From: an uncultured Geobacter sp.
Lineage (GTDB): Bacteria; Desulfobacterota; Desulfuromonadia; Geobacterales; CAIOGM01
Direction of reading: 5' to 3'
Assembly: GCA_903857795.1 (NCBI GenBank)
Contig: CAIOGM010000159.1
Coordinates: 5,458 to 69,457, forward strand
Length of the DNA: 64,000 nucleotides
Shown: positions 14,440-51,665 of the stretch, one piece after another
How the letters are laid out: each line of letters starts with the position of its first letter
Numbering within the stretch: the stretch's first letter is position 1
The notes under the pieces: generated by a model
What the model was told of the DNA's origin: nothing
The model's database searches: none
What the model saw: the letters and a program-made list of their open reading frames with translations, nothing else
Program-made: the position numbers and the translations under genes

Positions 14440-17259
<2,820 letters not shown>

Positions 17260-21360: not shown

Positions 21361-21383
21361 ACACATTGAACTATGAACTCACG

Positions 21384-21587: not shown

Positions 21588-21737
21588 GTCCTCTCTCCTT
21601 TGTCTCTCCGGCTGCTCCGGAACTGTGGTTACTATCCCCCGTCTTTCCGGAGTCCATGAGGGAGAAAATGCCAAAACAGAGCTTGCTTCCATTTCGCCTT
21701 CTCGACTGCCTTGAAACTTCCGGATACGCAGCTGCGT

Positions 21738-21766
21738 ACATTAGCCATGAGTAATAAGGTTGTCAA
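21738..21766 (-). promoter_or_regulatory. Sigma-70 promoter for csp (TTGACA-N17-TAATGT), giving a ~140-nt 5' UTR
   Basis: The minus strand reads TTGACAaccttattactcatggcTAATGT. A long leader is typical of cold-shock genes. Confidence 0.55.
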
Positions 21767-21795
21767 GAATTTTTTTACTCCCCGGGCATTATCGA

Positions 21796-22830: not shown

Positions 22831-22856
22831 CGGTGGTTGTCCTCTTCCTGCTTACA

Positions 22857-24392: not shown

Positions 24393-24496
24393 CTTGGTAT
24401 CCGTTATCGGGTTTCAGCCGGAGAGGCCGTTGAAAATGAGAAAGACGCTCTCCCCGGTTGAGGAGAGGGGGCGTTTTTGCGCATGTCGGCGGCGCG

Positions 24497-32620: not shown

Positions 32621-32723
32621 GGGGGAATTCTCCGGCTGGCAGGTGGGGTAGGGTAACATGAGAGATTGGGTACGGGTATTTCACGGATGTATGCAGTACC
32701 CGGAGACGTACTGTAGCACATAG

Positions 32724-32743
32724 GGGCGAATTTTGGTTCGCCC
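32724..32743 (-). terminator. Weak hairpin after protease A (GGGCGAA / TTCGCCC)
   Basis: A 7-bp stem with a 6-nt loop and no convincing T-run on the minus strand. Confidence 0.25.
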
Positions 32744-32783
32744 GATTTGTATTCCTGCCCGGTGGAACGGTTTTTAATGTCAG

Positions 32784-33395
32784 TCAGTCGCTCCAGAGGA
32801 TGGTCTGGGAGGTTACGTCGAGTTGGTGCCTGAACCGTCCGAGGAAGTTCATGCCGAGCCATCCATCGAAGGGGAGTGGCGGTCCGGTCACCGGGAGGAT
32901 GCCGACGTCGATGTCGTGGAGGGTCTTCGGGCCGACGGTGAGGGTCTCCAGGGTCGTCTGTCGGGACGGAACGTTCCTCCCGTCGGCCACTTGGGTCAAT
33001 CCCCGGGTGATCTCCTCCGCCGGTATGCCGAGCCTCTCCGCAAGGCTCTCGGAGATGATCGTGATCGAGGCGCCCGTGTCCAGGAGGAAGCGGCAGTTCA
33101 CGGTTCTGCCGCGATGGCTGGCGGTCACCGCCAGGTAGACCCTGTTGTCGGATACCGTTACGCTGCTGCTCGTGGCTCTCGGCTCACGACCTTCGGCAGT
33201 CGTCCGCACTCGTGTCCGGCTACGGTAGCGGTCGGGAATCTTCCCCGCTTCATCCACGAAGACCAGCGTGCCGTCACTGTCGGTATAGTGAAAACAGTCG
33301 GCGACAGCCGACCCGCCATGGGACAGGTTCGGCAGCGAAAGCATGCTAACCAGCTGTATGGCTGCGGCGTACTGCAGTACCGGTATCATGCTCAT
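32784..33395 (-). CDS. Secreted retropepsin-like (clan AA, TIGR02281-type) aspartic protease, copy A
   Basis: 203 aa with an N-terminal hydrophobic signal or anchor. A DUF4124-like segment (FHYTDSDGTLVFVDEAGKIP) is followed by the single catalytic motif FLLDTGAS and the C-terminal LGMNFL motif. The start overlaps the stop of the upstream giant gene (ATGA). Confidence 0.75.
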   Translation of the reverse strand: MSMIPVLQYAAAIQLVSMLSLPNLSHGGSAVADCFHYTDSDGTLVFVDEAGKIPDRYRSRTRVRTTAEGREPRATSSSVTVSDNRVYLAVTASHRGRTVNCRFLLDTGASITIISESLAERLGIPAEEITRGLTQVADGRNVPSRQTTLETLTVGPKTLHDIDVGILPVTGPPLPFDGWLGMNFLGRFRHQLDVTSQTILWSD

Positions 33396-36300
33396 CTCTC
33401 CTGGACGTGGACGATCTTTTTTACCGGACGGTTACCGCTGCGGGTGATGAGAAGCGGCGAGTCGCCCGGCGGTTTACCCTGCAGGGCCGTACCGATCCGC
33501 CGCTCTTCCTTGTCGGTGAATATGGAGACGTTCTGGCCGGGACTCCCCGAACTGAGATTGATCTGTTCGAACGCTCCGGTGGACATCTGTATCAGGGCTT
33601 TCCCCTGAAGTGACCCGGGGGGGATCTGGTATCCGGTGTTGTAGGCCACTCCCCAGAGATAGGATGTCCCCCCGAAGCCGCAGATGTCGGCGGTGGGTTT
33701 GAACGAGGTAAAAAATACCTGACCATTGGTCAACGCTACCGTGTTGGTGACGATCCGTTCCGCGCCGGTGGTGGATGCCGCCGGATCAAGATTGATATAC
33801 CACCCTTTATCGGTCCCCACCGTCAATGCACTGGTCGCGCCGGTTGACTGATTGGTCAGGTTACTGAACGTAAGGGGGGTATCCTCGCAGGTATCACTGC
33901 TGTTTTTAAGATCATTGGCCGCTGAATAACAGGGTTCCTTGATGCCGAAGATGCCCCTCTGGCCGCTGCTATCATCCACCCCGGTGGCGCCGGAACGGTA
34001 GAAATAACGTCCGGTCCCGAAATAGAGCCAGAGATTTTCATTGTCCTTATTCCGGTTCTGAAGTCGCGCCATGGCCGTGGTCACCGGCCCGATACCGCTG
34101 ATAACCTTGCTGAGCTTCCAGGTGGTTGGATCGATATTTTCATAGGTCATCAGCCGCAGCACCCCGCCGTCGGTCCAACTGTAGGACCCCGAGGAACCGG
34201 CTCTCGCCACGTAACCAAAATAGAGGGCGTCATCCTGGTAATTACCGGGCGAGGAGGAATTCCAGCGGTCCGAGTCGATGGGGCCGCCACTCAACGAACC
34301 CCCGAAACCGTTGGCAATGGTTGAATTGTCTTTCAGAGTGCTGATGGTGGTCACCAGGGTTCCGCTCTCCGCGTCAAGAACAAAAACCTTCAGCGGTTTG
34401 TCTGATTTTCCCATGAACTGGTGATTGGTGGTGTCGATAGGGCCGGTGGGGCCTGAGACGAAGACGGCAAACCACCTGCCGTTCTTGGTTTTGTCGCCGA
34501 CTCTGAGGATCGCCGGACCGTTCATGCTGTAGCCGAGATCAGGGTCGGAGAATTCCCACTTCAACTTAGGGGCTGTCGGATCGGTAACGTCCAGGGCGAA
34601 GTAGGTGGAGTAGCCCAGCCCTTTGGTCCCATCGGCGGGGTCGGTCCGGGGGGTCTTGACGCAATCGGTACAACTGTCACCGGTGATTCGTGTCGCCCCG
34701 CCGAGTCCCATGCCGCCGATGAGGATGCTCTTCCAACTGGCGGCGGTTCTGGTGCAATCCCAGTAGTCGGTGCTCGTGCAGGCGGTAGCCTTGGCGCTGC
34801 TGATGTCGGCGATGACCGGGGTGGCGTCCACGTAATACAGGTGGTTGTACGCCGGGTCGGCGAGGTACTTGAGATAGGGGAGGGCCTGTTTCGGGATGAA
34901 CGCCCACTGCTCCGTCCCCAGGTTGGCGCCACTCAGGGTCGCCTTCACGGCGCCGTGCTGGGTGACATCCATTGTCCCGAGTTTGAAGGCATGGAGCATA
35001 CCGTCATTGGCGCCGGCGAACACCATCCCGCGATTCTTGTAGCTGCTGGTCGAGAAGAACGAGGTATAGGTTGAATCGTTATATCCTGCCGGTTTGAGCA
35101 GATGGTAATTGTTGACCGGCAAACCCGATTCAATTTTGGGCGTCGAGGAGACAATATCTCCCAGTTTCCAGACGTTGGCCTGAGTGCCGATGTAGGCGTT
35201 GCGGCTCCGGTAGCCGGTTTTATCCGTCCCCAGGAGATAATTGATGATGTCCGAGGCCTCGGCGCCGCTGGCGGCCTGCAGATATGACTGGATTTTGGTG
35301 TTATTGGCGGCGGTGAACCCCATGAAGCCGTTGGTGCAGGTCGCGGTGGGGAGACAACTGGTGTACACGGTGCGGTCTGCCGGGGCGGTGGACCAGAGGA
35401 GCGCTCCTGCCCGCCAGAGGGCCTGAACATCCTCAGGGTAGGCGAAACCGTCGGAACTGTCACCGACACCGTCACCGTTGGTGTCCTTGATAAATTCAAC
35501 CTTGGTCTGATTCACACTGGGATTACTGTCAAAAAAGAAGCGGACGATCCGGTCCGTGGCCAGATTCAAGAGATGGCTTCCCGAAGTATATCCCGTGTCT
35601 TCCCGGATGGTGCTGTTGCCGATGAACGGATCGATATAGTACCAGAGGTTCAGCAACTCTCCGCTCCAGGTCACCGTGGAGGTGGTACTGCTGCCGAAGA
35701 TCTTGGAGGGGTAAAAGATTGCCTGGATAAGGTTGGCGCCGGTCCCTTCGCTGTTGCTGAGAATCGAGGCGGCAGTACCCGAGGCGACCCTCTTGAGAAT
35801 GTCGGTTAACGCCTTGTTCAGCTGCTGTTCCATCTGCAAGGGGTTGGAGATCAGATAATAGGTATCCGGGTCACCGCTGTTTTGGGAATCCCATTCATGG
35901 CACCCGCTTGCCGGAGTCGCGGTTCCGCAACTGCTGTCGGTATAAGGAACTCCGTCGCCGTTGATATCGTTGAATGCCCCATACTTGGCGGCGAACCAGA
36001 GGGGATTCTTGGGGAGTGTCCCTCCTGTGCCGTCGGGAGTGAAGATCATGGCGCGGGTTTCAGGGAGTTGCCTGATGGTCGCACTCTGGGAGCAGTAGCC
36101 GTGTTCGGTATAGTGTAAGGGGGTGCAATCAGTCGGATTGTTCCATTTTCTGACAGGGAGATACAGCCCATCGGTTGTCGTCCCCGCCACCACGAAGCCG
36201 ATGGCCGCATCATTGCCGGCGGAAGAGTATTTGGACTCCACTGTTACCCTGACCCTGCCGTTGGGCACATCCGGACAATGTCCCGCTGAGCATTCCGTTG

Positions 36301-38575
36301 ACGTGCAATAGTTGTAATTGTTGGTTCCACAGCTCTTCCGGGGACAACTTGCCCCCTCACAGACCTCATATTCCGCCAGGGTATCCATGTCGTAGTCCCC
36401 CCCGCCGATGTCGTCGGAACTGATCCTGAACCGGACATATTTCATCAATCCCGTCGCGGTATCGTACAGCGGATCGCCGAGGATATAGTAACTCACCATC
36501 TGTAAGCGTGGGCAGGCGCCGGTGGACGTCCCGGACGGAGTAAGAACCAGCCCTTTTGAGGGAGTATTGACCGAGGTATCCGGTTGCGTAGTCGGCGAGA
36601 GAGACTGGGTGTACTGACCGGAGCAGTTCCAGGTGATGCCGTTTACCGTGCCGTTTGCCATGGATTGTCCGGTGGGAATAATCGTCATCGTGCTGGATCC
36701 GGCCTTGATTTTCAGCTCCGGGACGTACGAGGGGAACGGGAGGGAATAGAACGTCACATTGGGCTTGCCGGGAAGTTCCGTCGAGATCTTGGTATGGCCG
36801 TAAAAGGCCATGGCTGCCGGCGAAAAACTCCCCTGCTCGTCCGGTTCGGCAGGGCATAAGCCCCGGCTGCTCCCCAGCTTGCCGGTACTGCTGAAGGTTT
36901 TTTTCGTGCAGAAGGTGTCGGAATTGACCCCCTTGACCTCTCCGATCATGGCGGTTGTCAACGCTTCATTGGTTCCGATGGTGTTGGTGAGGGCCTTGAC
37001 ATTGAGGTGTGGCAGGTCGTTGGTCGTAGTGGCGGCGATTGTGCCGAAATCCGAGCCGGGAATCTGGTCGGAGTCGTAACTGTTGTAAATGTCACTGAAG
37101 AGGAGCACGAACGGCTTTGAACATGAAGGGAAATTTGTCAGAGGAGTATCCCAGGAGGGAGCGGGCAGATTGAGGTCGTTATCGTTGCCCAGCGTGCTGC
37201 TTCCGGTCGACCCATTGGTGATTCCTGTTGAGAAGGCCGTGGTGGCGCTCCCTAACCCGACAATGTAGCGCAGCGACTCGTAGATGATTTCACCCATGGG
37301 GTTCCCCCAGTGAGTCGGCAGGGGGTAGCTCAAGGGGCAGCGGAAGTTTTCCAGAGTTCCGATGATATTCCCCTTGGCATTGAGGGTGTTGTCGAAGAGT
37401 CCGGTGGAGTTGTTGATCTCATCGAGCACGCTGCTGATCTGTTTCCGCAGGACACCGCCTGCCTGCGGGTTTTTGTACGAGCCGGTGAGCAGGCCAAAGT
37501 ACATGCTGGAACGGTCAAGACAGACGCCAATCGCCGTGCCGCCGTTGTTGGCGGCGTTACAGTCGGTATCGGAAGTGCAGCTTTTATTCAACGTCTTTGA
37601 ACAGACTTTTGTCCCGTCGGATGTGCCGAATTTTTGCAGGATCCCCACTGGTTTGTAGTTTGCCCCGTACTGTTGGCATTTACCCGGCACCGGCTCAAGG
37701 TAGCTGCTATCGCATACCTTGACACTGACCTCATAGTCAACGCTGGAAAAAGTTACCGATTCGGCCACCCCGTCGTTGTTATTGTCGATCTTGTTGGTGG
37801 CGCAGATGGTGTCGGCGCCGTCCACTGATGCCCAGTGCCAGGGGCGCAAGGGGAATATCGCGTTACCGTTTGAGACATCGGCAGTGGTTATCGTGCCGGG
37901 ATCGGCGACGACTCTGATCAAGCTCCTGGGGGAAGAGCTGCTGTCGTTGGTGGTCACGCAAAACAGGCTTCGTTTCCCGGAAACGGCACTGGGGAACAGC
38001 TTGCGCTGGTCCGCCGGCGCCGGAGTTTTTGCCATATCCTCATACCGGGGATACTCCTTCCCCCAGCTGTGACCGTCGCGAGGGATCTGTTCCCCGCTGA
38101 GGATGGTGCTGGTAGCCGTATCGGTTGTCCTGCTGCCACCATAGAGAACCCGCCGGACAACGTCCATCCGGGTCATGGAGAGCCAGTTGAGAAAATTGCC
38201 GGCCCACTCGCTGCTGGTGCCGGAACAGTATTTGTCGGTGGTGAGGCTGGTCGGAGAAAACAGTTTGTTGGAACTGCTGTAGGTGTAACATTTGTACGGG
38301 TCGAAATAGCCGTAGTAATCGATGCCGTGCTTGTACCCTACGTCCAGTTGCCCGTCATCGTTCAGATCAGAGGCGTCATTGTATGCGGCATAGTACATTT
38401 TATGGTCCTTGCTCATGCTCAGGAGGACCAGCGGCGGGATTGTCTGGGTAATGAACGGCGGTTGTATGCAGTAGTCGTTCATCACCGCCGCCCATGCCGG
38501 TGTGCAATGCACGGCAGCCAACACCACGGTCAGTCCGCACACTATTCTGAAGATCGTCTGCACTCTCTTGTTCAT
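33392..38575 (-). CDS. Giant secreted PilY1/PilC-like protein, copy A (degenerate vWA-like N-domain plus C-terminal beta-propeller)
   Basis: 1727 aa with a signal peptide ending TPAWA. PilY1 N-terminal block: PPLVLLSMSKDHKMYYAAYNDASDLNDDGQLD...YYGYFDPYKCY and GNFLNWLSMTRMDVVRRVLYGG. C-terminal PilY1 hallmarks: VFAGANDGMLHAFKLG, EQWAFIP, ILIGGMGLGG, YFALDVTDP, LWLYFGTGRYF and GERIVTN. It also has a DTNGDGVGD Ca-loop-like motif. Confidence 0.8.
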   Translation of the reverse strand: MNKRVQTIFRIVCGLTVVLAAVHCTPAWAAVMNDYCIQPPFITQTIPPLVLLSMSKDHKMYYAAYNDASDLNDDGQLDVGYKHGIDYYGYFDPYKCYTYSSSNKLFSPTSLTTDKYCSGTSSEWAGNFLNWLSMTRMDVVRRVLYGGSRTTDTATSTILSGEQIPRDGHSWGKEYPRYEDMAKTPAPADQRKLFPSAVSGKRSLFCVTTNDSSSSPRSLIRVVADPGTITTADVSNGNAIFPLRPWHWASVDGADTICATNKIDNNNDGVAESVTFSSVDYEVSVKVCDSSYLEPVPGKCQQYGANYKPVGILQKFGTSDGTKVCSKTLNKSCTSDTDCNAANNGGTAIGVCLDRSSMYFGLLTGSYKNPQAGGVLRKQISSVLDEINNSTGLFDNTLNAKGNIIGTLENFRCPLSYPLPTHWGNPMGEIIYESLRYIVGLGSATTAFSTGITNGSTGSSTLGNDNDLNLPAPSWDTPLTNFPSCSKPFVLLFSDIYNSYDSDQIPGSDFGTIAATTTNDLPHLNVKALTNTIGTNEALTTAMIGEVKGVNSDTFCTKKTFSSTGKLGSSRGLCPAEPDEQGSFSPAAMAFYGHTKISTELPGKPNVTFYSLPFPSYVPELKIKAGSSTMTIIPTGQSMANGTVNGITWNCSGQYTQSLSPTTQPDTSVNTPSKGLVLTPSGTSTGACPRLQMVSYYILGDPLYDTATGLMKYVRFRISSDDIGGGDYDMDTLAEYEVCEGASCPRKSCGTNNYNYCTSTECSAGHCPDVPNGRVRVTVESKYSSAGNDAAIGFVVAGTTTDGLYLPVRKWNNPTDCTPLHYTEHGYCSQSATIRQLPETRAMIFTPDGTGGTLPKNPLWFAAKYGAFNDINGDGVPYTDSSCGTATPASGCHEWDSQNSGDPDTYYLISNPLQMEQQLNKALTDILKRVASGTAASILSNSEGTGANLIQAIFYPSKIFGSSTTSTVTWSGELLNLWYYIDPFIGNSTIREDTGYTSGSHLLNLATDRIVRFFFDSNPSVNQTKVEFIKDTNGDGVGDSSDGFAYPEDVQALWRAGALLWSTAPADRTVYTSCLPTATCTNGFMGFTAANNTKIQSYLQAASGAEASDIINYLLGTDKTGYRSRNAYIGTQANVWKLGDIVSSTPKIESGLPVNNYHLLKPAGYNDSTYTSFFSTSSYKNRGMVFAGANDGMLHAFKLGTMDVTQHGAVKATLSGANLGTEQWAFIPKQALPYLKYLADPAYNHLYYVDATPVIADISSAKATACTSTDYWDCTRTAASWKSILIGGMGLGGATRITGDSCTDCVKTPRTDPADGTKGLGYSTYFALDVTDPTAPKLKWEFSDPDLGYSMNGPAILRVGDKTKNGRWFAVFVSGPTGPIDTTNHQFMGKSDKPLKVFVLDAESGTLVTTISTLKDNSTIANGFGGSLSGGPIDSDRWNSSSPGNYQDDALYFGYVARAGSSGSYSWTDGGVLRLMTYENIDPTTWKLSKVISGIGPVTTAMARLQNRNKDNENLWLYFGTGRYFYRSGATGVDDSSGQRGIFGIKEPCYSAANDLKNSSDTCEDTPLTFSNLTNQSTGATSALTVGTDKGWYINLDPAASTTGAERIVTNTVALTNGQVFFTSFKPTADICGFGGTSYLWGVAYNTGYQIPPGSLQGKALIQMSTGAFEQINLSSGSPGQNVSIFTDKEERRIGTALQGKPPGDSPLLITRSGNRPVKKIVHVQER

Positions 38576-39086: not shown

Positions 39087-39698
39087 TCACTCGCTCCAGA
39101 GGATGGTCTGGGTGTTTACGTCGAGCTGGTGCCTGAACTGTCCGAGAAAGTTCATGCCGAGCCACCCCTCGAAGGGGAGTGGCGGGCCGGTCACCCGGAG
39201 GATGCCGACGTCGATGTCGTGGAGTGTCTTCGGGCCGACCGTGAGCGTATCCAGAGTTGTGCGTCGTGATTGAATATTTCTTCCATCGGCTACCCGGGTC
39301 AACCCCTGCGTGGTCTCCTCTGTTGGTATCCCGAGTTTCTCCGCGAGGCTCTCCGAGATGATCGTGACCGAGGCGCCCGTGTCCAGAAGGAACCGGCAGT
39401 TCACGGTTTTGCCGCGATGTCTGACGGTTACCGTCAGATAGACCTTGTTGTCGGACACTATTACTCCGCTGCGCGTGGCTCTTGACTCCGGAGCTTTGTC
39501 GGCCGGTCTCACTGTTGTCCGGCTACGGTAGTGGACGGGAACCTTGCCGGCTTCATCAACGAAGACCAGCGTGCCGTTACTGTCCGTATATTGAAACACT
39601 TCGGCAAAAGCCGACCCGCTAATCAACAGGTTCAGCAGAGAAAGCATGATAACCAACTGCACCGACCTGGTGTACTGGGGAACCGGTATCATTCTCAT
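39087..39698 (-). CDS. Secreted retropepsin-like aspartic protease, copy B
   Basis: 203 aa, about 75 percent identical to copy A by hand count and higher in the C-terminal protease domain. It has the same FLLDTGAS and LGMNFL motifs and the same ATGA overlap with the upstream giant gene. Confidence 0.75.
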   Translation of the reverse strand: MRMIPVPQYTRSVQLVIMLSLLNLLISGSAFAEVFQYTDSNGTLVFVDEAGKVPVHYRSRTTVRPADKAPESRATRSGVIVSDNKVYLTVTVRHRGKTVNCRFLLDTGASVTIISESLAEKLGIPTEETTQGLTRVADGRNIQSRRTTLDTLTVGPKTLHDIDVGILRVTGPPLPFEGWLGMNFLGQFRHQLDVNTQTILWSE

Positions 39699-42600: not shown

Positions 42601-45112
42601 AGTTGAGGGCGCTCTGAAGTGTCCCGGCGGTGGGGGTCAGGCCGGCATTGATGATGTAGCTGCAGGCGTTCGGGTTCGATGTGTTGGTGCATGACATGTA
42701 CCCGGTTTCATCGTTCTGGAAAGCAACCGGCGTCCGATTCCCCCCCAGGGAGGTCAAGAGTGAAGTCAATTGGGTATTCCCAGGGGAGACGTTATCAGCT
42801 ATCGGCACATTCAAATATCCGCCACCAGGCGAACTGTTGGTAAAAAAGGTCTGACTGGTATAATACCAACTATTCCTAACCCCAAAATCGTAGAATCCAA
42901 GAGCATAGTCATCATCTGTGGGAATAAAGCCCTGCGGACCAGTGCATCCGGCGAATCCGGTGGTCGCGTCGTTTGCGCCGGTCTTGCTGGTACAGGTATA
43001 ATAAGAGTCGGTTTGAGCTGGATATTCAGTAGAACTGTACCCGCTTGAGTAGGTATAACTTATTCCATGGTTCGAGCTGTCATAGTACGTCCCCGGCATG
43101 CCATAGTAGGTCGTAGTTCCGTTGGTATCTGTATTCTTGCGCGTCTTCGGGTAGATAAGCGAGCAGTATGTCTTGCGCTTGGCGCTGTTGACCGCAGTTC
43201 CGTTAGACCCTCCCGTACCGCCCGTCGTGGTTATTGCATCCCGGTAATTGACCTGAAATGCCGGATTCCCGGCAGCCACACCCGAAATTCCGTTTTGACA
43301 TGAATTTCTGCAGGCAATTTCAGCGGCGGAAGGGGAATAGGTTCCGGTCTTTGGATCTTCTTGAACACAGTAGTTGGAGCATGACCCGTCCGATGGGGGA
43401 GTCGGGCAGTATGATTTCAGATCGAACGAGTTGAAATACGCGGAATTGTGCAGGAAGTACTTGGATACCGAAGGAAGTTTGTAGCTCATGATGCCGATGC
43501 GCATGATGTTGCCGTAGGCGTTCACGATGGACGTGAGGGCCTGCCGGGCGATGATCGACCTGCTGCAGGTATTGAGATCGTTAGGATCGGTGCACTTTGG
43601 TGAACCGATGGCGTTGTTTTGGAAATCTTCATCCATGCTGTTGGAATTGTCGAGGATGATGAGCACGTTCGGTTTCACGTTGGTACAGACATAGGGCGGC
43701 ACCACCGTGTAGGTATTCAGTGACGCTACCTGGGTGGTGAAGCTGAAACTGTATTGTCCAAGGGCGTTTCCTGCCAGATCCGTAACTCCACTGGTCAGGG
43801 TGACGGTGTAGGGCATGCTGAAGTCGAGACCGGTAGCCGGAGTAAGCGTTAGTTTTTTTGCCGTTGAATCATAGGAAATGCTTGCAGGTATGTTTTGTGA
43901 TCCGTCGGATATGTATACCGTGGCGCTATTCATGGACGAGGCGAGCATATTGTTCAGTTCGGTGAAGTTTATAGTGATAGGCGATGTTATCGAGATGTCC
44001 GAGGTATTATTTGCAGGCGAGGTGCTTGCCACCACGGGGGCTACAGTGTCCAGAATGAATGACCATGAATGGCTCATATCGAGGGCATTCGGGGTGGGGC
44101 TTGCCGCGTCCTTGATGCCGGTGGTCAGGGTGATGTTGTAGGCGCCGTCAGTGAAGGCCGCTGTTGGTGTAAATGACTCGGTATTGGAACCGGCATCGAA
44201 GCTGTAGGCGCCTGCTACCGCGGTTGTAACTTTTTTGACCGAAAAGGTGCTGCTGGTTATAGTTGTCGTAGTGATGGTATCGCTGAAGGTGGCCGTTATG
44301 GCGTTCGGTATGGTATTTAGATAGGCGGTGTTAGGCGAAAACGACACGAGGGTCACTGGCTGGTTGTCGACATTGAACATCCACGTACAAGAGTAGTTGA
44401 CGCAATCAAGTGCGTTGCTGCTCGTATCGGTCAGACCGGCCGTGAGGGTCACTCGGTATGTTTTCAGGGATGCGAGGGCTGATGACGGTGTCACGGTTAC
44501 CGTTTTGTTCGAATTCGACCAGACAGGGGCATTGAGAGGCACCGGGATATTGCCGTCGGTCACATTGATCAGATTAATTGAAGGATTTGAACCTGATACT
44601 GTGGCTGAGCTTGTATTCATGGCTTCGAAAAAGGTTGGTGCAATATTAGGTGAGGTGCTCGATGTTGTTGTCACTAGTGGGACATACGATACCATGTACG
44701 GTGGCTTATAGTCGCGAATGGTAAAAGTAAACGTTGACGGGCCGGTATAAGTACCTGCGGTAGGTGTTGCTTTATCTTTTATGCTTTTTGCACAGGCCGA
44801 GTACTGGGTGCCGGATGACAAGCTCGCGGTTGGTGTGATGGTTATGGTTTTCGCAACGGAATCACAGCCGATACTTACCGACCCGAAGACCGTCCCTCCG
44901 CTGCAACTGGAACCGCTGGTTATAAAGATATTGGTTCCGCTCGCACTAGTGCAGTCAAGTGCGGTTGCAGAGGTAAAGCTCACTGTATGTGGACCAAGCT
45001 CATTCACTCCAGTGGTTGTATTTGGTGTCCAGACCGGCGAAGATGGCGCCCCTAAAGCTGTACCGGAATGAAAAAAGAACAGACAGCCGACTGCCAGCAG
45101 TATTCGTTTCAT
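39695..45112 (-). CDS. Giant secreted PilY1/PilC-like protein, copy B (about 5 SbsA/Big-type Ig-like repeats, vWA with an intact MIDAS, beta-propeller)
   Basis: 1805 aa with a signal peptide ending TALGAPS. Residues ~25-460 hold repeated Ig-like units (for example TVTPSSALASLKTYRVTLTAGLTDTSSNAL). KPNVLIILDNSNSMDED is a DxSxS MIDAS at residues 488-492. PilY1 hallmarks are VFVGANDGMLHAFKLG, EQWAYIP, LIGGMGLGG, YFALDITKP, FWLYFGTGRYY and AERVITN. Confidence 0.8.
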   Translation of the reverse strand: MKRILLAVGCLFFFHSGTALGAPSSPVWTPNTTTGVNELGPHTVSFTSATALDCTSASGTNIFITSGSSCSGGTVFGSVSIGCDSVAKTITITPTASLSSGTQYSACAKSIKDKATPTAGTYTGPSTFTFTIRDYKPPYMVSYVPLVTTTSSTSPNIAPTFFEAMNTSSATVSGSNPSINLINVTDGNIPVPLNAPVWSNSNKTVTVTPSSALASLKTYRVTLTAGLTDTSSNALDCVNYSCTWMFNVDNQPVTLVSFSPNTAYLNTIPNAITATFSDTITTTTITSSTFSVKKVTTAVAGAYSFDAGSNTESFTPTAAFTDGAYNITLTTGIKDAASPTPNALDMSHSWSFILDTVAPVVASTSPANNTSDISITSPITINFTELNNMLASSMNSATVYISDGSQNIPASISYDSTAKKLTLTPATGLDFSMPYTVTLTSGVTDLAGNALGQYSFSFTTQVASLNTYTVVPPYVCTNVKPNVLIILDNSNSMDEDFQNNAIGSPKCTDPNDLNTCSRSIIARQALTSIVNAYGNIMRIGIMSYKLPSVSKYFLHNSAYFNSFDLKSYCPTPPSDGSCSNYCVQEDPKTGTYSPSAAEIACRNSCQNGISGVAAGNPAFQVNYRDAITTTGGTGGSNGTAVNSAKRKTYCSLIYPKTRKNTDTNGTTTYYGMPGTYYDSSNHGISYTYSSGYSSTEYPAQTDSYYTCTSKTGANDATTGFAGCTGPQGFIPTDDDYALGFYDFGVRNSWYYTSQTFFTNSSPGGGYLNVPIADNVSPGNTQLTSLLTSLGGNRTPVAFQNDETGYMSCTNTSNPNACSYIINAGLTPTAGTLQSALNYFKGAMVQGSTTPLASPIQYSCQKNFIIYVTDGAPSVTESGATGASTDLMPTVLTKLDALRCPPNGGSGNCNVTVNSINYDVTSYILGVGLVAADKTNVDAMAVHGGTDRNGQAYYADNPTQLNNSLIDIFNNILNQLSSGTAASILSNAEGSGAVILQAIFYPKKVFSNNTVANWTGELLNFWYYLDPYINTSSIREDTDYSDATGAATHNLNLTNDYIVNFFFDTSMKATRVKLFQDTNGDGIGETLIRTDYPETVKSLWKAGTLLWKRDQTDNTQKRTIYTNTSGTLRTFFSPTDTADSSDATATDLRRYLQASDVTSAKQLINYISGIDYPGDATLRNRTVTIGSTSGVWKLGDIVTSTPRVLSTVPQNNYHMQPPSGYNDSSYYSFINSNEYKARGSVFVGANDGMLHAFKLGLLDVTASGAQKATLSGSNLGSEQWAYIPRNVLPYLKYLADPSYGHLNFVDLTSTIADVSIGTVGTCTHYWDCSKNSSQVVGSSAVNPVNPNDLAVETNWRTVLIGGMGLGGASRRSSAGCTNCVRTPIVDPANNSVSMGYSSYFALDITKPGQPALLWEFTNNRLGYSTAGPAIIRVGPRNKNGRWLALFASGPTGPIDTTTHQFLAKSDQPLRLFIVDLKDGSLVQTINTGIPNAFAGSLQGGALDADRWNLSLLGNYQDDVVYIGYVKQNTSDDTWTDGGVLRVMIKPSTADPSTIQTGTFNVSSNDFVTSIVIDGIGPVTSSIARLQDRKNKHFWLYFGTGRYYFKTTAAGDLDDCATQRNIFGIKEPCYTSANAIDTTCTTTVDSTKLTNQSGVGYTTASTNSLDTLKDKGWFITLDAAAGSSCAERVITNPVALSTGAVFFTTFLPSSDICAYGGNSYLWALKYDTGFVPSSASMYGKAIIQMSTGSFESTQFNDPSNPSSTPFSARESRRTGTAMQGKPPADPPTIINRSQNQPVKKVLHIQER

Positions 45113-45465
45113 CGCCCTACCTCCAGCACATCAATCTCGACGACCAAGCCCTTGATGGTTGTTATCCTGACTGGTGTCTTTTCGGGGAGCTTTGAGACAT
45201 CGATCCTTTTTCCGTTGTACTCCACGGTAACGGCAGATTGAATCCGATAGAATCTGACTCCGCCCTGTTCTGACAACAACAGAACAAATGTGGCTCCATT
45301 ACGGATTCCTCCAAAAAAACCGTTACTTATTTCCCCCTGGTCTGTATGGCTCAGTGCGCCTGAAGTTGCCGGAGTCATCCCTATGGCAAACATCGGACAG
45401 GCTGCCACCAAGCAAGAGGTAATGATTGCGGCTCTAACGAGTTGAGTTATCGAAATAGATGCCAT
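45109..45465 (-). CDS. Small secreted protein of unknown function, first gene of cassette B
   Basis: 118 aa from the Met at 45465, preceded by an AAAGGAG RBS. A signal-like segment (AAIITSCLVAACPMFAIG) precedes a beta-rich C-terminus. Its stop overlaps the giant gene start (ATGA). The longer track ORF would overlap the kinase gene. Confidence 0.6.
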   Translation of the reverse strand: MASISITQLVRAAIITSCLVAACPMFAIGMTPATSGALSHTDQGEISNGFFGGIRNGATFVLLLSEQGGVRFYRIQSAVTVEYNGKRIDVSKLPEKTPVRITTIKGLVVEIDVLEVGR

Positions 45466-45489: not shown

Positions 45490-45505
45490 TGCAAGTGGAC
45501 AGCCT
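45490..45505 (-). promoter_or_regulatory. Candidate sigma-54 promoter (AGGCTG-N5-TTGCA) overlapping the kinase stop codon
   Basis: The minus strand reads tAGGCTGtccacTTGCAag with exact GG-N10-GC spacing. The predicted transcript would begin just upstream of the Shine-Dalgarno of the small ORF. Confidence 0.4.
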
Positions 45506-47750
45506 ATTGATGTTCGCTTACGCTGCGTGCGCCGAGCAGGTTCCCGATTATCTCGGTGAGCTGGCGGAGCCGGATCGGTTTGCTCACAAAAGCGTCGGCG
45601 CCGGCCGCCAGGCAACGCTCCCGCTCCTCCGGCGAAGCCTGGGCGGTGAGGGCGATGAGGGGGATTTCCCCGGCAGGGGAGGGGAGCTCCCTGATCCGCC
45701 GGATCGCCTCGATGCCGCTCATGCCGGGCATCCGGATATCCATGAGGACCAGCGCCGGCAGCTCACGTTCGGTGAGAGCCACGGCTTCATCTCCAGAACC
45801 GGCGCCGATGATCCGGTACCCTTCACCCTGCAGATAGCTCGCCACCATGTCGAAGGCGACCTGGTTGTCTTCGGCCAGGAGGATGAGTCGGGAACGGGAA
45901 ACGGTGACTGCTGACGCGGGAGCGGCGACCGGTGACTGGTTATTGGTGACTGGGGTGCGGCAGGTGGCGGTAGTTCCCTCCGCCTGCAAGGGGATGGTCA
46001 CCGTGAAACAGCTCCCCTCGGCGGGCCGGCTCGCCACGGTCACGCTCCCGTGATGCAGGGCGGTCAGTTGCGCCACCAGGGCGAGCCCCAGGCCGGTCCC
46101 TTCATGGCGGCGGGAGAGGCTGTCATCCACCTGGGTGAAGGGGTGGAAGAGCTCCTGCTGCTGCGCCTCGCCGATCCCGATGCCGCTGTCTCTGACCGCG
46201 AACCGCACCCCGCCTCCGGCAGGGTCACCGGTCACCTCCAGCTGGACACTCCCCCCCCGGGGGGTGAACTTGACGGCATTGTCCAAAAGATTCAGGAGGA
46301 TCTGTTTCATCCGCCGGCGGTCGGCGCGAAACAGTCGGGGCGCCTCCGTGCTCCCGCTGATGAGGGTGATTCCCTTGGCCGCCGCGGGAGCGGTCATGTA
46401 ACCGATGCACTCCTCGCAGAGCTCCTGCAGGGAGATCTCTTCGAGGAAGAGCTCCATCTTGTTCGCTTCGATCTTGGAGATATCCAGGATGTCGTTGATG
46501 AGGGAGAGGAGATGCTCCCCGCTGCCGTGGATGCTCTGCAGCGCCGCCGACTGCTCATCGGTGAGCGGGCCCCTGAGCCGCGCCAGGAGCGATTCTGACA
46601 GGCCGAGGATGGCGTTGAGCGGCGTCCGGAGCTCATGGGTCATGGTGGCGAGAAAGCGGCTCTTGGCACGGGTGGCGCTCTCCGCCTCCTGACGCGCCTG
46701 TTTCAGGAAGCCCATGGCGCCGTTGATGCTCCGGGCCAGGTTGTTCAGCTCTGCTCCGTCCGGTTCGGTCAGCAGGGTGTCGGGTTGGGTGAAGTCCAGG
46801 CAAGAGACCTTGCCGCTCAGGCTCTTCAGGGGGAGGAGCACGGTCCGGTTGAGCAGGAGCAGCATGGTGGTGATGAGCAGGGCGCCTACGCCGAAAAGGG
46901 CCCAGACGAAGTAGCCGGTGACCCGTCGCCCTTCGGCGGTGAAGCTTCTGGCCGCCGTCATCCGGACCGCGAATCTCTCTCCGGTCAGGATATCGGCCGC
47001 CAGGGAATACCCTTCGATCTCCTGCTCGCTGCTGAACCGTTCCAGCTGTCTCTTCCCCGGGGGGAGACGCAGCAGCAGTTCCCTGGTGGCGGCCGGGATC
47101 CGTCGGTCCGTGAGCGGCATGAGCTGAAACGGCTGGGAGACGGTCTTTCCCAGCTCCTGCAGCTCCGCCTCTTCCAGCTCATTGGCGAACACCAGCATCC
47201 CCCGGGACGGACCCTGCGCCTTGGAGGTGAGGACCGGATGGGTCGACGCCACATAGAAGGTCCCCCCCAGCCGGAAGAGTCCCGAGGTCGCCTCAACCGT
47301 CCCCTTCCGGCTGCCCAGTGTCGCCAGCTCTTTCAGCTTCTCCAGGAGGAGAGGAGAGAGCCGCCGCCTGCTCTGATCGGAAAAAGTATAGGAGCAGGCG
47401 TAGCGAGGCCGTCCGTCGGGGAGCATGAACAGGAGGTGCTCGATGTCATAGACCTTGAAATAGCTGGGGCTCAGATCGATGGTGATGAATTTGGAGGCGC
47501 CGGTTTTCATGAAATCGTACGCGTCATCCCAGTCCGCCCAGTCCACGACCCATTTCCCCAGGTCACGCTGTTTCTGCTCCAGGAGATAGGTGACGATCTT
47601 GAGCCGGTCGGAGAGTTGCCGGCTCTCCAGGGGGGAGACCTCGGAGATGATGATGCTGCGGGTGATGAGGAAGACCAGCAGGAGCGATCCCGCCAGGATC
47701 AGGATGGTGAGAAGCAGGGTCTTCTGTCTGATAGTCATTTTCGAACTCAT
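45504..47750 (-). CDS. Hybrid sensor histidine kinase: TM, CHASE4-like domain, TM, HisKA, HATPase, REC, without HPt
   Basis: 748 aa. The periplasmic part contains VVDWADWDDAYDFM, which is CHASE4-like. The H-box is THELRTPLNAI, the G-boxes are DSGIGI and GTGLGLAL, and the C-terminal receiver has LVLMDIRMPGMSG. The protein ends right after the receiver. Confidence 0.85.
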   Translation of the reverse strand: MSSKMTIRQKTLLLTILILAGSLLLVFLITRSIIISEVSPLESRQLSDRLKIVTYLLEQKQRDLGKWVVDWADWDDAYDFMKTGASKFITIDLSPSYFKVYDIEHLLFMLPDGRPRYACSYTFSDQSRRRLSPLLLEKLKELATLGSRKGTVEATSGLFRLGGTFYVASTHPVLTSKAQGPSRGMLVFANELEEAELQELGKTVSQPFQLMPLTDRRIPAATRELLLRLPPGKRQLERFSSEQEIEGYSLAADILTGERFAVRMTAARSFTAEGRRVTGYFVWALFGVGALLITTMLLLLNRTVLLPLKSLSGKVSCLDFTQPDTLLTEPDGAELNNLARSINGAMGFLKQARQEAESATRAKSRFLATMTHELRTPLNAILGLSESLLARLRGPLTDEQSAALQSIHGSGEHLLSLINDILDISKIEANKMELFLEEISLQELCEECIGYMTAPAAAKGITLISGSTEAPRLFRADRRRMKQILLNLLDNAVKFTPRGGSVQLEVTGDPAGGGVRFAVRDSGIGIGEAQQQELFHPFTQVDDSLSRRHEGTGLGLALVAQLTALHHGSVTVASRPAEGSCFTVTIPLQAEGTTATCRTPVTNNQSPVAAPASAVTVSRSRLILLAEDNQVAFDMVASYLQGEGYRIIGAGSGDEAVALTERELPALVLMDIRMPGMSGIEAIRRIRELPSPAGEIPLIALTAQASPEERERCLAAGADAFVSKPIRLRQLTEIIGNLLGARSVSEHQ

Positions 47751-47897: not shown

Positions 47898-47927
47898 TTG
47901 TAACATTCTGTCGATTTATCGTATGAT
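47898..47927 (+). promoter_or_regulatory. Candidate sigma-70 promoter for the divergent activator gene (TTGTAA-N18-TATGAT)
   Basis: Read directly, about 50 nt upstream of the ATG at 47979. Confidence 0.35.
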
Positions 47928-47978: not shown

Positions 47979-49397
47979 ATGACCGGCGTCAGGGTGCTCA
48001 TCTGCGACGACGAAGAGGAGTCTCTGGCCCTCTTCTCCCGGATGCTCGGTAACGAGGGGATGGCGGTGGAGTGCTTCGCCTCCGGGGAAAAGCTGATACA
48101 GCGGCTCAGGGATGGGGGGGATGCTGCGCTTCTTCTGCTGGATGTCCGGATGCCGGAGGTGAGCGGCCTGCAGCTGCTGGAACAGCTCCGGCAGCTGCGA
48201 CCGGAGCTGCAGATCATCATGATGACGGCGTTCGGCACCATCGATGACGCGGTGAAGGCGATCCGGCTGGGCGCCTATGACTTTATCACCAAGCCGTGCC
48301 CGCGGGCCAAGCTCCTGGTGAGCATCAGGCACGCCCTGGAGAACGATTTTCTGAGACGGGAAAACCGGGAACTTCGCAGTCAGCTGAAGAGTCCGGACGC
48401 TGCGGGGGCCATCGTCTTCCGGAGTGAGCGGTTTCGCGAGATTCATGACCTGGCCCTCAAGGTTGCCGGCAGCAGCGCCAATATCGTCATCCTGGGTGAG
48501 TCGGGGACCGGCAAGGAGCTCATCGCCCGGGTCATCCATCGGCAGAGTCCCCGCAGCAACCGTCCCTTCTTATCCATCAACTGCGCCGCCTTTTCCGAAT
48601 CGCTCCTGGAGAGCCAGCTCTTCGGCCATCTCCGGGGGGCGTTTACCGGCGCCGTCGCCAGCCACAAGGGGTTTCTGGAGGAGGCCGATGGCGGGACGCT
48701 CTTTCTCGACGAGATCGCCGACATGGCCCCGGCGATCCAGGCCAAGGTCCTGAGGGCCATTCAGGAGGGGGAGTTCTTTCCGGTGGGGGCCGGCAACTCC
48801 CGGCGGGTGGATGTCCGCTTCGTCGCGGCCACCAACCGGGAGCTGGAGCGGGAGGTCGCCGCCGGGCGGTTCCGTGAAGATCTCTTCTTCCGGCTCAGTG
48901 TCATAACTCTGAAGCTCCCCCCCTTGAGGGAACGGCGGGACGACATCGAACCGCTGACCGACTATTACCTTGCCCTGTTCAACAGCCAGATGAAGAAGAG
49001 GGTCACTGGAATCTCCACCGAGGCGCGGCGGCTGCTCATCGCCTACTCCTGGCCAGGCAATGTCCGGGAGCTGAGGAATATCATGGAGCGGGCGATCATC
49101 CTGGCGGAGGGGTGCGAGATAACGCCGGAGAGCCTGCCCCTCACCCTGAGCGACGGTGTGTCGGGGCCCCGGGCCGTCGTGGGGAGCCTGGAGAGCTCCC
49201 TGGAACAGCTGGAGAGGGAGCATATCGCCTGTATCCTGGAGGCCACGGGAGGGCACAAGAGCCGCAGCGCCGCGATCCTCGGCGTCTGCCGCAGAACCCT
49301 GGACCGCAAGATGGAAGCGTACGGCCTGGGAGAGCCGGCGCCGCGCGGCCGGCCGCCGAATCAGAAACGGCAGGGGGGTAACCGACATGATCCATGA
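47979..49397 (+). CDS. Sigma-54-dependent response regulator (NtrC family)
   Basis: A strong RBS (ACAGGAGGTG) precedes the ATG at 47979 (MTGVRVLICDDEEE). It has the receiver motif LLLDVRMPEVSG, Walker A GESGTGKE, GAFTGA, WPGNVRELRN and a C-terminal Fis-type HTH. Confidence 0.9.
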   Translation: MTGVRVLICDDEEESLALFSRMLGNEGMAVECFASGEKLIQRLRDGGDAALLLLDVRMPEVSGLQLLEQLRQLRPELQIIMMTAFGTIDDAVKAIRLGAYDFITKPCPRAKLLVSIRHALENDFLRRENRELRSQLKSPDAAGAIVFRSERFREIHDLALKVAGSSANIVILGESGTGKELIARVIHRQSPRSNRPFLSINCAAFSESLLESQLFGHLRGAFTGAVASHKGFLEEADGGTLFLDEIADMAPAIQAKVLRAIQEGEFFPVGAGNSRRVDVRFVAATNRELEREVAAGRFREDLFFRLSVITLKLPPLRERRDDIEPLTDYYLALFNSQMKKRVTGISTEARRLLIAYSWPGNVRELRNIMERAIILAEGCEITPESLPLTLSDGVSGPRAVVGSLESSLEQLEREHIACILEATGGHKSRSAAILGVCRRTLDRKMEAYGLGEPAPRGRPPNQKRQGGNRHDP

Positions 49398-49572
49398 ACT
49401 GAATACGCCGCTCTTCATCATCATCGGGAGGGCGGAACTCCTCCAGAACGAGCGTCCGGACGACCCGGTGGTGCAGGAGCACCTGACCATTATCCTGGCG
49501 CAGGCGGAGAGGCTGCAGGAGATCATCGAGGGGCTGCGGGATGAGGAGCGGGGGGGTGCAGGGAATTCTTGA
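49387..49572 (+). CDS. 61-aa DHp (HisKA)-only mini-protein, or the remnant of a degraded kinase gene
   Basis: MIHELNTPLFIIIGRAELL is a canonical H-box helix, and a second helix follows (LTIILAQAERLQEIIEGL). No ATPase domain follows. The start overlaps the activator stop by 11 nt, and GC3-rich codon usage is consistent with coding. Confidence 0.45.
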   Translation: MIHELNTPLFIIIGRAELLQNERPDDPVVQEHLTIILAQAERLQEIIEGLRDEERGGAGNS

Positions 49573-49640
49573 CAAACCACGGCGATTGTCTCATAAAGGT
49601 GCAGTATCGTAGGATTCCGTTCTGAGAGGAGCCGCTCCAT

Positions 49641-50810
49641 ATGCGCTGTCGTAGCCATCTCTGTCTGGTGCATGACGTCTCCATCGACGCTGCCCTTCCT
49701 GCCCTCGATCCCCTGTTGCGCCCCTCTGATATGTATCTGCTGGTGAGCCCTGATCGTGAACCCCAGGCCCGCTGGCTGGAGTCGATCCTCCGGCCGGAAG
49801 GGATCACCGTGCATCTGAAGTTCCTCCGGGACCCCTGGAGCGTCTCCGCGGTCCGGAATCAGGTCTTGAGCATCCTCATGGGGCGTGGCCCCCATGATGT
49901 GGCGCTCAATCTCTCCGGGGCCTTCGGTCCGGCGGCCATCGGCGCCTATGAGGCGTTTCGCGGCGCCGAGCGGCCGATCTTCTATGTCCATCCGGAGCGC
50001 AACTGCCTGGTCTGGCTTCACCCGGAGGAGGGGCGGCTCTCCCCGCTGACAGGACAGATGAGCCTCACCGACTTTCTCCGGGCCCACGGCGCGGCCATCG
50101 GGGAGAACCCGGCCGACACCTCCATGCCGCGGGGGCTGCGCGCCCTGACCCGGGAGCTGATCGGCGGGGTGGAGCGGCTGGCGAAACCGATGGCCAGCCT
50201 CAACTGGTTCGCCTACCATGTGGATGGCGACCGCTGCACCCTCCCCCTGGACAGCGGCTATCTGAAATGGGGCGAGCTGCAGAACCTCATCGATCGCTTC
50301 GCCGAGTTCAACCTGGTGGAGCGGCAGGGGGACCGGCTTTGTTTCCCCGACGAGGGGGCCCGCCGTTACGTGAATGGCGGCTGGCTGGAGGACCATGTCT
50401 CAACCCACCTGGAGCAGCTCCGGACCGAAGACTCCTCCATCCAGGAAGTGGCGCGGGGGCTGGAATATGTCCGGCTGAATGACGCGGCGGCGATCAAAAA
50501 TGAGCTGGACGTGGCGTTTCTGGCGGGGAACCGGCTTCACATCATCGAATGCAAGACCAAGCGGTTTCAGTGCACCCTCAATCCGGACGCCCCCGGCGCG
50601 GACGCTCTCTACAAGCTGGACGGCGTGCGGCAGCAGTTGGGGGGGCGTCAGGCCCGGGTTCTCCTGGTCAGTTACCAGCCGCTCCTCGACTCTCACCGGC
50701 AGCGGGCCGCGGACATGGGGATCAGGCTCTGCGTCGGCCGGGAGATTCACTACATCACCGAACTACTCCGGGAGTGGGTTCAGCCTGAGGCGCTGGCCCC
50801 GCAGGAGTAA
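49641..50810 (+). CDS. Card1/Can2-like (DUF1887) protein: CARF-like N-domain plus PD-(D/E)xK nuclease
   Basis: 389 aa. The C-terminal half has GGWLEDHV...NELDVAFLAGNRLHIIECKTK...LGGRQARVLLVS, the Card1-type restriction-endonuclease-fold signature. The N-terminus is Rossmann-like (HLCLVHDVSIDAALPAL...YLLVSPD). A GAGAGGAG RBS precedes it. Confidence 0.68.
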   Translation: MRCRSHLCLVHDVSIDAALPALDPLLRPSDMYLLVSPDREPQARWLESILRPEGITVHLKFLRDPWSVSAVRNQVLSILMGRGPHDVALNLSGAFGPAAIGAYEAFRGAERPIFYVHPERNCLVWLHPEEGRLSPLTGQMSLTDFLRAHGAAIGENPADTSMPRGLRALTRELIGGVERLAKPMASLNWFAYHVDGDRCTLPLDSGYLKWGELQNLIDRFAEFNLVERQGDRLCFPDEGARRYVNGGWLEDHVSTHLEQLRTEDSSIQEVARGLEYVRLNDAAAIKNELDVAFLAGNRLHIIECKTKRFQCTLNPDAPGADALYKLDGVRQQLGGRQARVLLVSYQPLLDSHRQRAADMGIRLCVGREIHYITELLREWVQPEALAPQE

Positions 50811-51162: not shown

Positions 51163-51414
51163 ATGAATGCCTTGACCTATACCTTTACGCGACAGCATCT
51201 GGCAGATGTCATGCGCTCAGTCAATGAAGATCACGTTCCTGTTGTTGTGACCAGCCAGCGTGGTAAACCGGTTGTCATCCTTTCACTTGACGATTATCAC
51301 GCATTTGAAGAAACAGCGTACCTGCTCCGGAATCCGGATGGAGCCAGACGATTGCTTGATTCGGTGGAGGAGCTACGCGCAGGAGGCGGACAAGTTCGAG
51401 AGTTGTCGGAATGA
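51163..51414 (+). CDS. yefM: Type II antitoxin, Phd/YefM family
   Basis: 83 aa. The sequence VVTSQRGKPVVILSLDDYHAFEETAYLLRNPDGARRLLDS is characteristic of YefM. Confidence 0.9.
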   Translation: MNALTYTFTRQHLADVMRSVNEDHVPVVVTSQRGKPVVILSLDDYHAFEETAYLLRNPDGARRLLDSVEELRAGGGQVRELSE

Positions 51415-51665
51415 TGAGCAAATTCTCAACCGCTGCGTGGGAGGACTACCTTTACTGGCAGAAGAGCGACAGGGCCATACTCAAACGCATCAATCAACTG
51501 ATCCGGGAAATTCAGCGCGAACCGTTTACCGGTATCGGTAAGCCCGAACCACTCAAGCATCAGTTAGCCGGTTTCTGGTCTCGCAGAATAGACAGCTGTC
51601 ACCGCTTAGTGTATGCAGTCGAGGATGGAACACTCCTGATTGCACAGTGTCGTGATCATTATTGA
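51411..51665 (+). CDS. yoeB: Type II toxin, Txe/YoeB family mRNA interferase
   Basis: 84 aa with AWEDYLYWQKSDRAILKRINQLIREIQREPF.GIGKPEPLK and FWSRRIDSCHRLVY. It shares an ATGA overlap with yefM. Confidence 0.9.
   Translation: MMSKFSTAAWEDYLYWQKSDRAILKRINQLIREIQREPFTGIGKPEPLKHQLAGFWSRRIDSCHRLVYAVEDGTLLIAQCRDHY

Follow-up and report, generated by a model that had tools for sequence, protein, structure and literature searches.

A stand-alone DHp hairpin gene maintained beside a sigma-54 activator gene in uncultured relatives of Geobacteraceae

Two-component signaling is usually described in terms of kinases, receivers and histidine phosphotransfer (HPt) modules. Within the kinase, the HisKA hairpin, or dimerization and histidine phosphotransfer (DHp) domain, is the part that forms a four-helix bundle on dimerization and to which receiver domains dock. 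Proteins that have a HisKA domain without an ATPase domain are, to our knowledge, treated as "incomplete kinases", and we know of none that has been tested. The gene described here encodes such a hairpin and nothing else (mini-DHp), and it lies directly 3′ of the gene of an NtrC/AtoC-type sigma-54 activator in a 64,000-nucleotide (nt) stretch of DNA from an uncultured Geobacter sp. (contig CAIOGM010000159.1, positions 5,458 to 69,457 of the forward strand), hereafter the window.

The nearest described category is formed by the 'HisKA, no HATPase' proteins, histidine kinase-like proteins that share with the mini-DHp the HisKA domain, the conserved His and the lack of a catalytic domain (PMC5847659). 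Roles as phosphoacceptors, in phosphotransfer or as phosphatases have been suggested for them but never tested, and in P2CS they are labeled 'possible incomplete histidine kinase' (PMC5847659). They carry N-terminal PAS/GAF sensors and are mainly archaeal, whereas the mini-DHp is a bare bacterial hairpin with a fixed gene partner. The nearest functional analogs are engineered DHp fragments of NtrB and EnvZ, and RedE. According to PMC3510030, which draws on Zhu et al. 2000 and Kramer & Weiss 1999, the isolated DHp ('domain A') of NtrB and of EnvZ reportedly suffices for phosphatase activity, and such fragments are said there to confer the phenotype of a constitutive phosphatase in vivo. Like the mini-DHp, these fragments are isolated HisKA hairpins with the His and with Thr or Asn four residues after it (H+4), and the receiver served by NtrB is that of a sigma-54 activator, NtrC; unlike it, they were engineered and have a full helix 1, whereas the mini-DHp is a natural conserved gene product in which helix 1 begins two residues before the His (H-2) in six of eight lineages. 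RedE of the Myxococcus xanthus RedCDEF system has no sensor domain, carries His24 near its N-terminus and cannot autophosphorylate; it accepts phosphate from the receiver RedD and dephosphorylates the response regulator RedF, but it has kept HATPase_c, needs ADP for its phosphatase activity and has no adjacent sigma-54 activator (PMC2755868). Spo0B, ChpT and PhyT are also derived from DHp domains, with the His on helix 1 of the hairpin, no autokinase activity and a position between receivers (PMC3433190, PMC5898713), but they are much larger, they keep a C-terminal alpha/beta domain resembling the catalytic and ATP-binding (CA) domain, and only a generic DHp sequence relationship to the mini-DHp was detected. 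No paper on a natural bare-DHp or HisKA-only protein was found in the open-access literature, to which the search was limited and which makes this weak evidence, and no NCBIfam model or source annotation naming any member of the mini-DHp family was found.

The mini-DHp open reading frame (ORF) runs from an ATG at 49387 to a TGA at 49570-49572, comprises 61 codons and encodes MIHELNTPLFIIIGRAELLQNERPDDPVVQEHLTIILAQAERLQEIIEGLRDEERGGAGNS. Pfam HisKA (PF00512) matches this product with 50.4 bits (E=2.4e-13, gathering cut-off 26.9) from position 11 to the last (66) of the profile, so that the ten profile positions preceding the H-box are absent. The phospho-acceptor His is residue 3, Thr7 occupies H+4, and the H-box reads HELNTP. 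The hairpin is the sole domain, with neither a HATPase_c match nor a sensor domain found with the Pfam library and with no match to the Hpt profile (PF01627) at E≤1, although an Hpt domain is recognized by this library in a different hybrid kinase of the window (10755-14387). There is no C-terminal alpha/beta (CA-like) domain either; only 4-40 unconserved residues follow helix 2 in the different lineages, and the tail beyond about residue 52 is without constraint. The AlphaFold2 monomer (mean predicted local distance difference test score, pLDDT, 88) consists of a helix at 2-22, a loop and a helix at 27-57, with His3 at the start of helix 1, and the hydrophobic residues, read by eye, show a heptad-like spacing, the sole support for a homodimeric four-helix bundle. 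Judged by these matches, the protein belongs to the Pfam HisKA domain family and is not a histidine kinase, an HPt or a member of the Spo0B/ChpT family. A Foldseek comparison of the predicted hairpin with the PDB gave nothing significant (best E=0.67), since a hairpin of two helices is too generic, and the DHps of ZraS and of other kinases appeared among the noise only; a PDB sequence search gave one match, the 60-residue kinase fragment 7n0e_A (E=1e-4). The first-pass annotation, made from the DNA sequence, had described a 61-residue DHp-only protein coupled to the activator, with a second helix and with codons rich in third-position G+C, and this description agrees with HisKA as the only Pfam match, with an 11-nt overlap of the two genes, with the AlphaFold2 hairpin and with a G+C content of 0.70/0.33/0.82 at the three codon positions against 0.66/0.44/0.84 in the activator gene.

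The activator stop codon, which ends at 49397, accounts for the 11-nt overlap, and the in-frame DNA 5′ of the mini-DHp start is activator coding sequence in a different frame. Gene callers predicted the exact 61-residue protein on at least 11 metagenome contigs. No terminator was found between the activator gene and the gene of the Card1-type endonuclease on the far side of the mini-DHp. The mini-DHp is probably co-transcribed with the activator and probably translationally coupled to it. The junction varies by lineage, from an overlap of 11 or 4 nt to gaps of 6, 8, 15-16 or 26 nt. Within the window's own lineage a strain polymorphism was seen at 49373-49378, where some contigs (comparison with L005-L007) have an additional A on the 3′ side of the G-run; it shortens the activator from 472 to 467 amino acids and turns the 11-nt overlap into a 6-nt gap, leaving the mini-ORF untouched. 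An activator-DHp fusion through ribosomal frameshifting at the G-run was ruled out, as frame relation and spacing vary by lineage, and an in-frame stop 24 nt 5′ of the mini-ORF start in L008 also argues against it. A known RNA element over the ORF was likewise ruled out, there being no Rfam match nearby.

Lineages carrying the gene were gathered by a protein search, from contigs of activator homologs and by an exhaustive HMMER scan. The protein search with the 61-residue query gave only four proteins, which are 58-82 amino acids long and about 80% identical and which begin at or include MIHELNT. Counting the window, an intact mini-DHp is present in all eight lineages, each time directly 3′ of the HTH_8 region of the activator, whose identity across lineages drops to 64% where it was measured. 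Its length is 61 amino acids in the window, 62 in L100, 81 in L008, 57 in L015 (from the MIHEL start), 58 in L011, 66 in L105, 81 in L104 and 91 in L099. The first-pass annotation had proposed to look among orthologs for conservation of the length and the His: the ORF and the His are indeed conserved (8/8), at lengths of 57 to 91 amino acids. L099 and L104 each have 22-23 extra N-terminal residues, but these extensions share no relationship, and therefore the conserved unit begins at H-2. On the 3′ side, the mini-DHp is followed by Card1 in the window, by an inserted TraG-like gene and then Card1 in L100, by a Cas6-like gene and FtsH in L008, and by a GlmU-like gene in L011. Since the downstream genes differ and the activator is constant, it is to the activator, not to Card1, that the mini-DHp is linked.

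When a profile of the family was run exhaustively with HMMER against 1.84 billion representative proteins, the top four were proteins of 58, 81, 66 and 91 amino acids (63-130 bits), and full-length kinases appeared after a score gap, at 55 bits or below. Scanning for the activator in one genome per GTDB species yielded only paralogs of at most 47% identity, none with a mini-ORF, and when metagenome DNA was scanned with the alignment of the mini-proteins, the only additions were two full-length kinases and a single contig from a lineage already known. The distribution so far is a narrow uncultured clade, the nearest named relatives of which are Geobacteraceae.

Selection was estimated pairwise as the ratio of nonsynonymous to synonymous substitution rates (dN/dS) across a shared core of 50 codons, wherever dS was estimable. 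The ratio is 0.055-0.13 for the mini-DHp core, with dS from 0.5 to more than 2 and saturated in the deeper pairs; the very close pair L100-L015 (dS 0.20) gives 0.22. By the same measure the activator has 0.08-0.16 and the neighboring hybrid kinase 0.24-0.30. A typical pair differs by 21-35 substitutions at third codon positions against 4-18 at either other position (binomial p of about 1e-3 to 1e-5). A purine-rich motif resembling a Shine-Dalgarno sequence lies 4-12 nt 5′ of the start in all eight lineages, and none of them has a frameshift or stop in the mini-DHp, although the neighboring Card1 has decayed in L008. We conclude that the mini-DHp is a protein-coding gene that is being maintained, and that purifying selection acts on it as strongly as on the activator. 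Because it is intact in eight lineages, with low dN/dS, Shine-Dalgarno-like motifs and a score gap to full-length kinases, it is probably a working mini-regulator rather than gene debris, and the stand-alone DHp mini-protein is real, conserved and probably translated.

Selection within the hairpin is uneven. H3, L5, T7, L9, the stretch G14-R-A-E-L-L-Q20, E22, V29, E31, H32 and Q39 are invariant in all eight lineages, and the most rigid block extends from lower helix 1 (GRAELLQ) through the loop into the beginning of helix 2. By comparison, the residue after the His (H+1) is E in six of the lineages and D or Q in one each, and the position of the canonical Pro (H+5) is occupied by P, S, A or C.

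The sequence also carries traces of its origin. Two full-length cytoplasmic kinases, those recovered by the metagenome DNA scan, carry GMIHELNTPL, and the start Met of the mini-DHp corresponds to the internal H-2 Met of these kinases. Furthermore, a Geobacteraceae activator that is 58% identical to the one studied here has a full-length dCache-HAMP-HisKA-HATPase kinase gene directly 3′, with an ATGA overlap, and the DHp of that kinase aligns to the mini-DHp without gaps at 40% identity; the DHp of the hybrid kinase in the window can be aligned to it only with gaps. An origin from a kinase is likely, because the start Met equals the H-2 Met and because the place is taken by a full-length kinase behind a related activator, and the ancestor was probably the former downstream cognate kinase of the activator, stripped of its sensor and CA domains with the hairpin kept. 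The first-pass annotation had offered, as its alternative, the stump of a kinase gene truncated when Card1 arrived. Descent from a kinase likely stands, yet a mere stump left by the arrival of Card1 does not, as the ORF persists next to Card1, Cas6-like, GlmU-like and TraG-like genes and under purifying selection. The positions of the module and its surroundings are collected in table 1.

Table 1. Features of the mini-DHp locus in the window
Feature	Position	Strand	Basis or remark
mini-DHp gene	49387..49572	+	Sequence, Pfam, AlphaFold2, invariant residues, dN/dS
Shine-Dalgarno-like purine run AGGGGGG	49372..49378	+	8 nt before the mini-DHp ATG
NtrC/AtoC-type sigma-54 activator gene (REC, Sigma54_activat, HTH_8)	47979..49397	+	Pfam; co-directional with the mini-DHp
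Sigma-70-like promoter TTGTAA-N18-TATGAT	47898..47927	+	Ahead of activator and mini-DHp; conserved in four lineages
Sigma-54-like -24/-12 element CGGCACGGATATTGAA	47778..47793	-	About 28 nt before the hybrid kinase start
CHASE4-HisKA-HATPase_c-REC hybrid histidine kinase gene without Hpt	45504..47750	-	Pfam; divergent from the activator
Gene of a 118-residue protein with hydrophobic N-terminal segment, no Pfam family	45109..45465	-	Downstream of the hybrid kinase
Gene of a PilY1/Big_5-like giant surface protein, 1805 residues	39695..45112	-	Last gene of the cluster; Pfam matches from ortholog
Conserved Card1 upstream region (GAATTCTTGACAAA...TTGTCTCA...GAGAGGAG)	49563..49640	+	3′ boundary of the module
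Card1-type CARF endonuclease gene	49641..50810	+	Neighbor, not part of the module

What could a hairpin do on its own? Our tentative preference, held with less than even confidence, is for a receiver-docking phosphatase or phosphoryl drain that acts on the activator. The mini-DHp would bind the receiver domain of the activator, in which the DD, D, T and K residues are intact (the C-terminal tail of the activator is variable), and would remove its phosphoryl group; as a co-expressed protein it would be a built-in and roughly stoichiometric phosphatase or drain, resetting the activator and insulating it, the activator now being driven, on this proposal, by the CHASE4 hybrid kinase encoded divergently. 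We infer dimerization, receiver docking, the phosphatase chemistry and the identity of the phosphodonor. In four kinases of the HisKA type, among them CrdS, whose partner is an NtrC-like activator, the acidic residue at H+1 was needed only for kinase activity, and Thr or Asn at H+4 was needed only for phosphatase activity (Willett and Kirby, PMC3510030). Since Thr at H+4 is invariant and the acidic H+1 varies, the mini-DHp has kept what a phosphatase needs and relaxed what a kinase needs, and the pattern of an invariant Thr with relaxed H+1 and Pro at H+5 fits a phosphatase, a role that the first-pass annotation had named as well, at least as well as a phosphorelay.

Partner specificity could bear on the same question. 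From what is established for HK853-RR468 and from the EnvZ rewiring work, the rigid block of GRAELLQ, loop and helix 2 start carries the residues that determine the partner, here taken as positions H+7, H+8, H+11, H+12 and H+15. They read F-I-G-R-L in the mini-DHp, A-I-G-N-L in the dCache kinase encoded beside the 58%-identical activator and N-A-G-L-S in the hybrid kinase, so that at these positions the mini-DHp is closer to that NtrC-cognate kinase than to the hybrid kinase. These residues, together with a comparison of helix 1 of the receivers, are suggestive at most and are too few to separate a phosphatase from a relay.

Several points weigh against a phosphatase. The His is residue 3 in six lineages and helix 1 is short, Pro at H+5 varies, and only eight lineages are known, every one of them from metagenomes. 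In CrdS, P376A reduced phosphatase activity, and a DHp domain by itself has less phosphatase activity than one joined to CA (PMC3510030). The invariant His and the neighborhood of a hybrid kinase without Hpt fit a phosphotransferase equally well, and a constitutive phosphatase leaves the route by which the activator is phosphorylated unexplained.

The second possibility, a strong contender that we rate somewhat below the first, is a minimal phosphotransferase of the Spo0B/ChpT kind, in which phosphate would pass from the hybrid kinase to its own receiver, then to His3 of a mini-DHp dimer and finally to the receiver of the activator; reverse flow along the same path would reset the system. That the CHASE4 kinase ends in a receiver and has no HPt, the observation on which the first-pass annotation had built its relay, was confirmed with the Pfam library that detects Hpt elsewhere in the window. 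The kinase is syntenic with the activator and the mini-DHp in the window, in L100 (66% identity) and in L099 (47% identity), and its 118-residue neighbor was ruled out as a hidden HPt, having a hydrophobic N-terminal segment and no Hpt match, which also suits a relay through the mini-DHp, as does the invariance of the His in all eight lineages. There are precedents in the DHp-type phosphotransferases ChpT (PMC3433190) and PhyT (PMC5898713), and in the kinase-like RedE a His close to the N-terminus accepts the phosphate of a receiver (PMC2755868). On the other hand, the surface of the mini-DHp resembles the DHps of kinases cognate to NtrC-type activators and not that of the hybrid kinase, and the receivers of the hybrid kinase and the activator differ in helix 1, which leaves docking to the hybrid receiver unsupported. 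Classical Hpt domains in the genome, such as the one at 10755-14387, could act for the hybrid kinase; the mini-DHp lacks the additional alpha/beta domain of Spo0B and ChpT; and a pure shuttle would not require Thr at H+4. In L011 the hybrid kinase gene seems to be interrupted, with only about 13 codons behind the conserved divergent promoter, in an event that may be of any age, and activator and mini-DHp are intact; the L011 contig opens (1-200) in a fragment like an insertion sequence, which by reading alone resembles the C-terminal end of a transposase. If the relay did exist, no smaller histidine phosphotransferase than the mini-DHp would be known; as a bare hairpin dimer it would complete a CHASE4-to-sigma-54 relay free of HPt, and it would represent a wider, so far unrecognized class of DHp-only proteins encoded beside response-regulator genes, a combination that we hold to be less likely than not.

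Unlikely as we consider it, the mini-DHp could also be a non-catalytic binder, either a decoy or anti-activator on the receiver or a poison of kinases through DHp heterodimers, with no phosphoryl chemistry involved. The most conserved block is the stretch that would contact a partner (GRAELLQ, loop and helix 2 start), the gene is co-transcribed with the activator as far as its arrangement tells, and H+1 and Pro at H+5 are relaxed, all of which a binder would explain; it would not require His3 and Thr7, both invariant in 8/8 lineages, and the window has no closely related full-length DHp as a heterodimer partner, the best other match being 36% identical. A non-functional remnant of a truncated kinase gene, open by chance, is very improbable, for although the start Met matches an internal Met of GMIHELNTPL-type kinases, the C-terminal tails vary in both sequence and length, the mini-DHp stop codon directly adjoins the Card1 promoter and a full-length kinase occupies this position behind a related activator, the ORF is intact in eight lineages despite saturated synonymous sites, with dN/dS (0.06-0.13) no higher than that of the activator, mostly third-position substitutions, conserved Shine-Dalgarno-like motifs and, unlike Card1 in L008, no frameshifts or stops.

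With either a phosphatase or a shuttle as its candidate role, the mini-DHp is a natural, selected protein that consists of the receiver-docking hairpin alone and has a fixed partner gene, and as such it provides a minimal system for asking what a DHp does alone. It would offer an explanation of how some hybrid kinases without HPt reach their regulators or are insulated from them, and it gives a reason to keep, and not discard, ORFs of 60-90 amino acids beside regulator genes. There is a hint, from sequence matches, that the stand-alone DHp architecture recurs. Contig L106 has a DHp-only ORF at 204-461 (85 amino acids, HisKA E=2.7e-16), 10 nt before the gene of a REC-only protein (472-855), and L107 has one at 372-632 (86 amino acids, HisKA E=4.7e-12), 8 nt after a gene (1-363) whose product ends in a GerE/LuxR helix-turn-helix; the two ORFs are unrelated, and both adjoin regulator genes. 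A second small HisKA-only family of 68-131 amino acids (P0150, P0202, P0243, P0192, P0235, P0135 and P0217; alignment A4) has an invariant H, Thr at H+4, Pro at H+5 and G..ELL, and it too is conserved, because each member represents a different cluster at 50% identity.

The hybrid kinase belongs to a cluster with the giant PilY1/Big_5-like protein and a protein of about 95-119 amino acids, and this cluster is present in all three lineages in which the upstream DNA is readable (the window, L100 and L099). The PilY1/Big_5-like protein is probably the output of the module. In four lineages (the window, L100, L099 and L011) the sigma-54-like element is conserved as GG-N10-GA, its -12 part having GA instead of GC (TTGA against the canonical TTGC), and it may be an atypical sigma-54 promoter and a putative target of the activator. 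Because this conserved element faces the hybrid kinase, it suggests that the activator drives the operon of the hybrid kinase and the PilY1-like protein.

At the other end of the module, the Card1 upstream region begins within the last codons of the mini-DHp. Card1 itself has been displaced in L100, survives in L008 as no more than a frameshifted remnant and is missing from L011, and with its conserved upstream region it was the ancestral neighbor in the subclade of the window, L100 and L008. It may therefore mark the 3′ break, in an event older than the divergence of these three lineages. Its upstream region and roughly the first 60 nt of its coding sequence are conserved between the window (49563-49700), L100 (about 11080-11200) and L008 (1153-1300); in L008 only the frameshifted 5′ remnant of Card1 persists and is followed by the Cas6-like gene. 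No CRISPR-like tandem array was detected in the window. Further downstream, a YefM/YoeB toxin-antitoxin pair (51163-51665, + strand) has a third-position G+C content of 0.47-0.57 against 0.82-0.84 in its neighbors, and since this is lower than in all neighboring genes, it suggests that the pair was acquired recently.

Elsewhere in the window, a dense run on the - strand (10755-28896) contains five sensor kinase genes. Three of them encode PAS-GAF hybrid kinases (10755-14387, with REC-REC-Hpt; 14440-17259; 17524-21195), one encodes a MASE1-CHASE kinase (24497-27244) and one a HAMP kinase (27241-28896). A second REC/sigma-54 activator gene (31088-32659, - strand), in which HTH_8 has no match at E≤1e-5, adjoins the gene of a second PilY1-like giant (33392-38575, - strand, 1727 amino acids), and the loci at 31088-38575 look like a parallel copy of the module without the mini-DHp. 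An aspartyl-protease-like gene (39087-39698) comes after the second giant.

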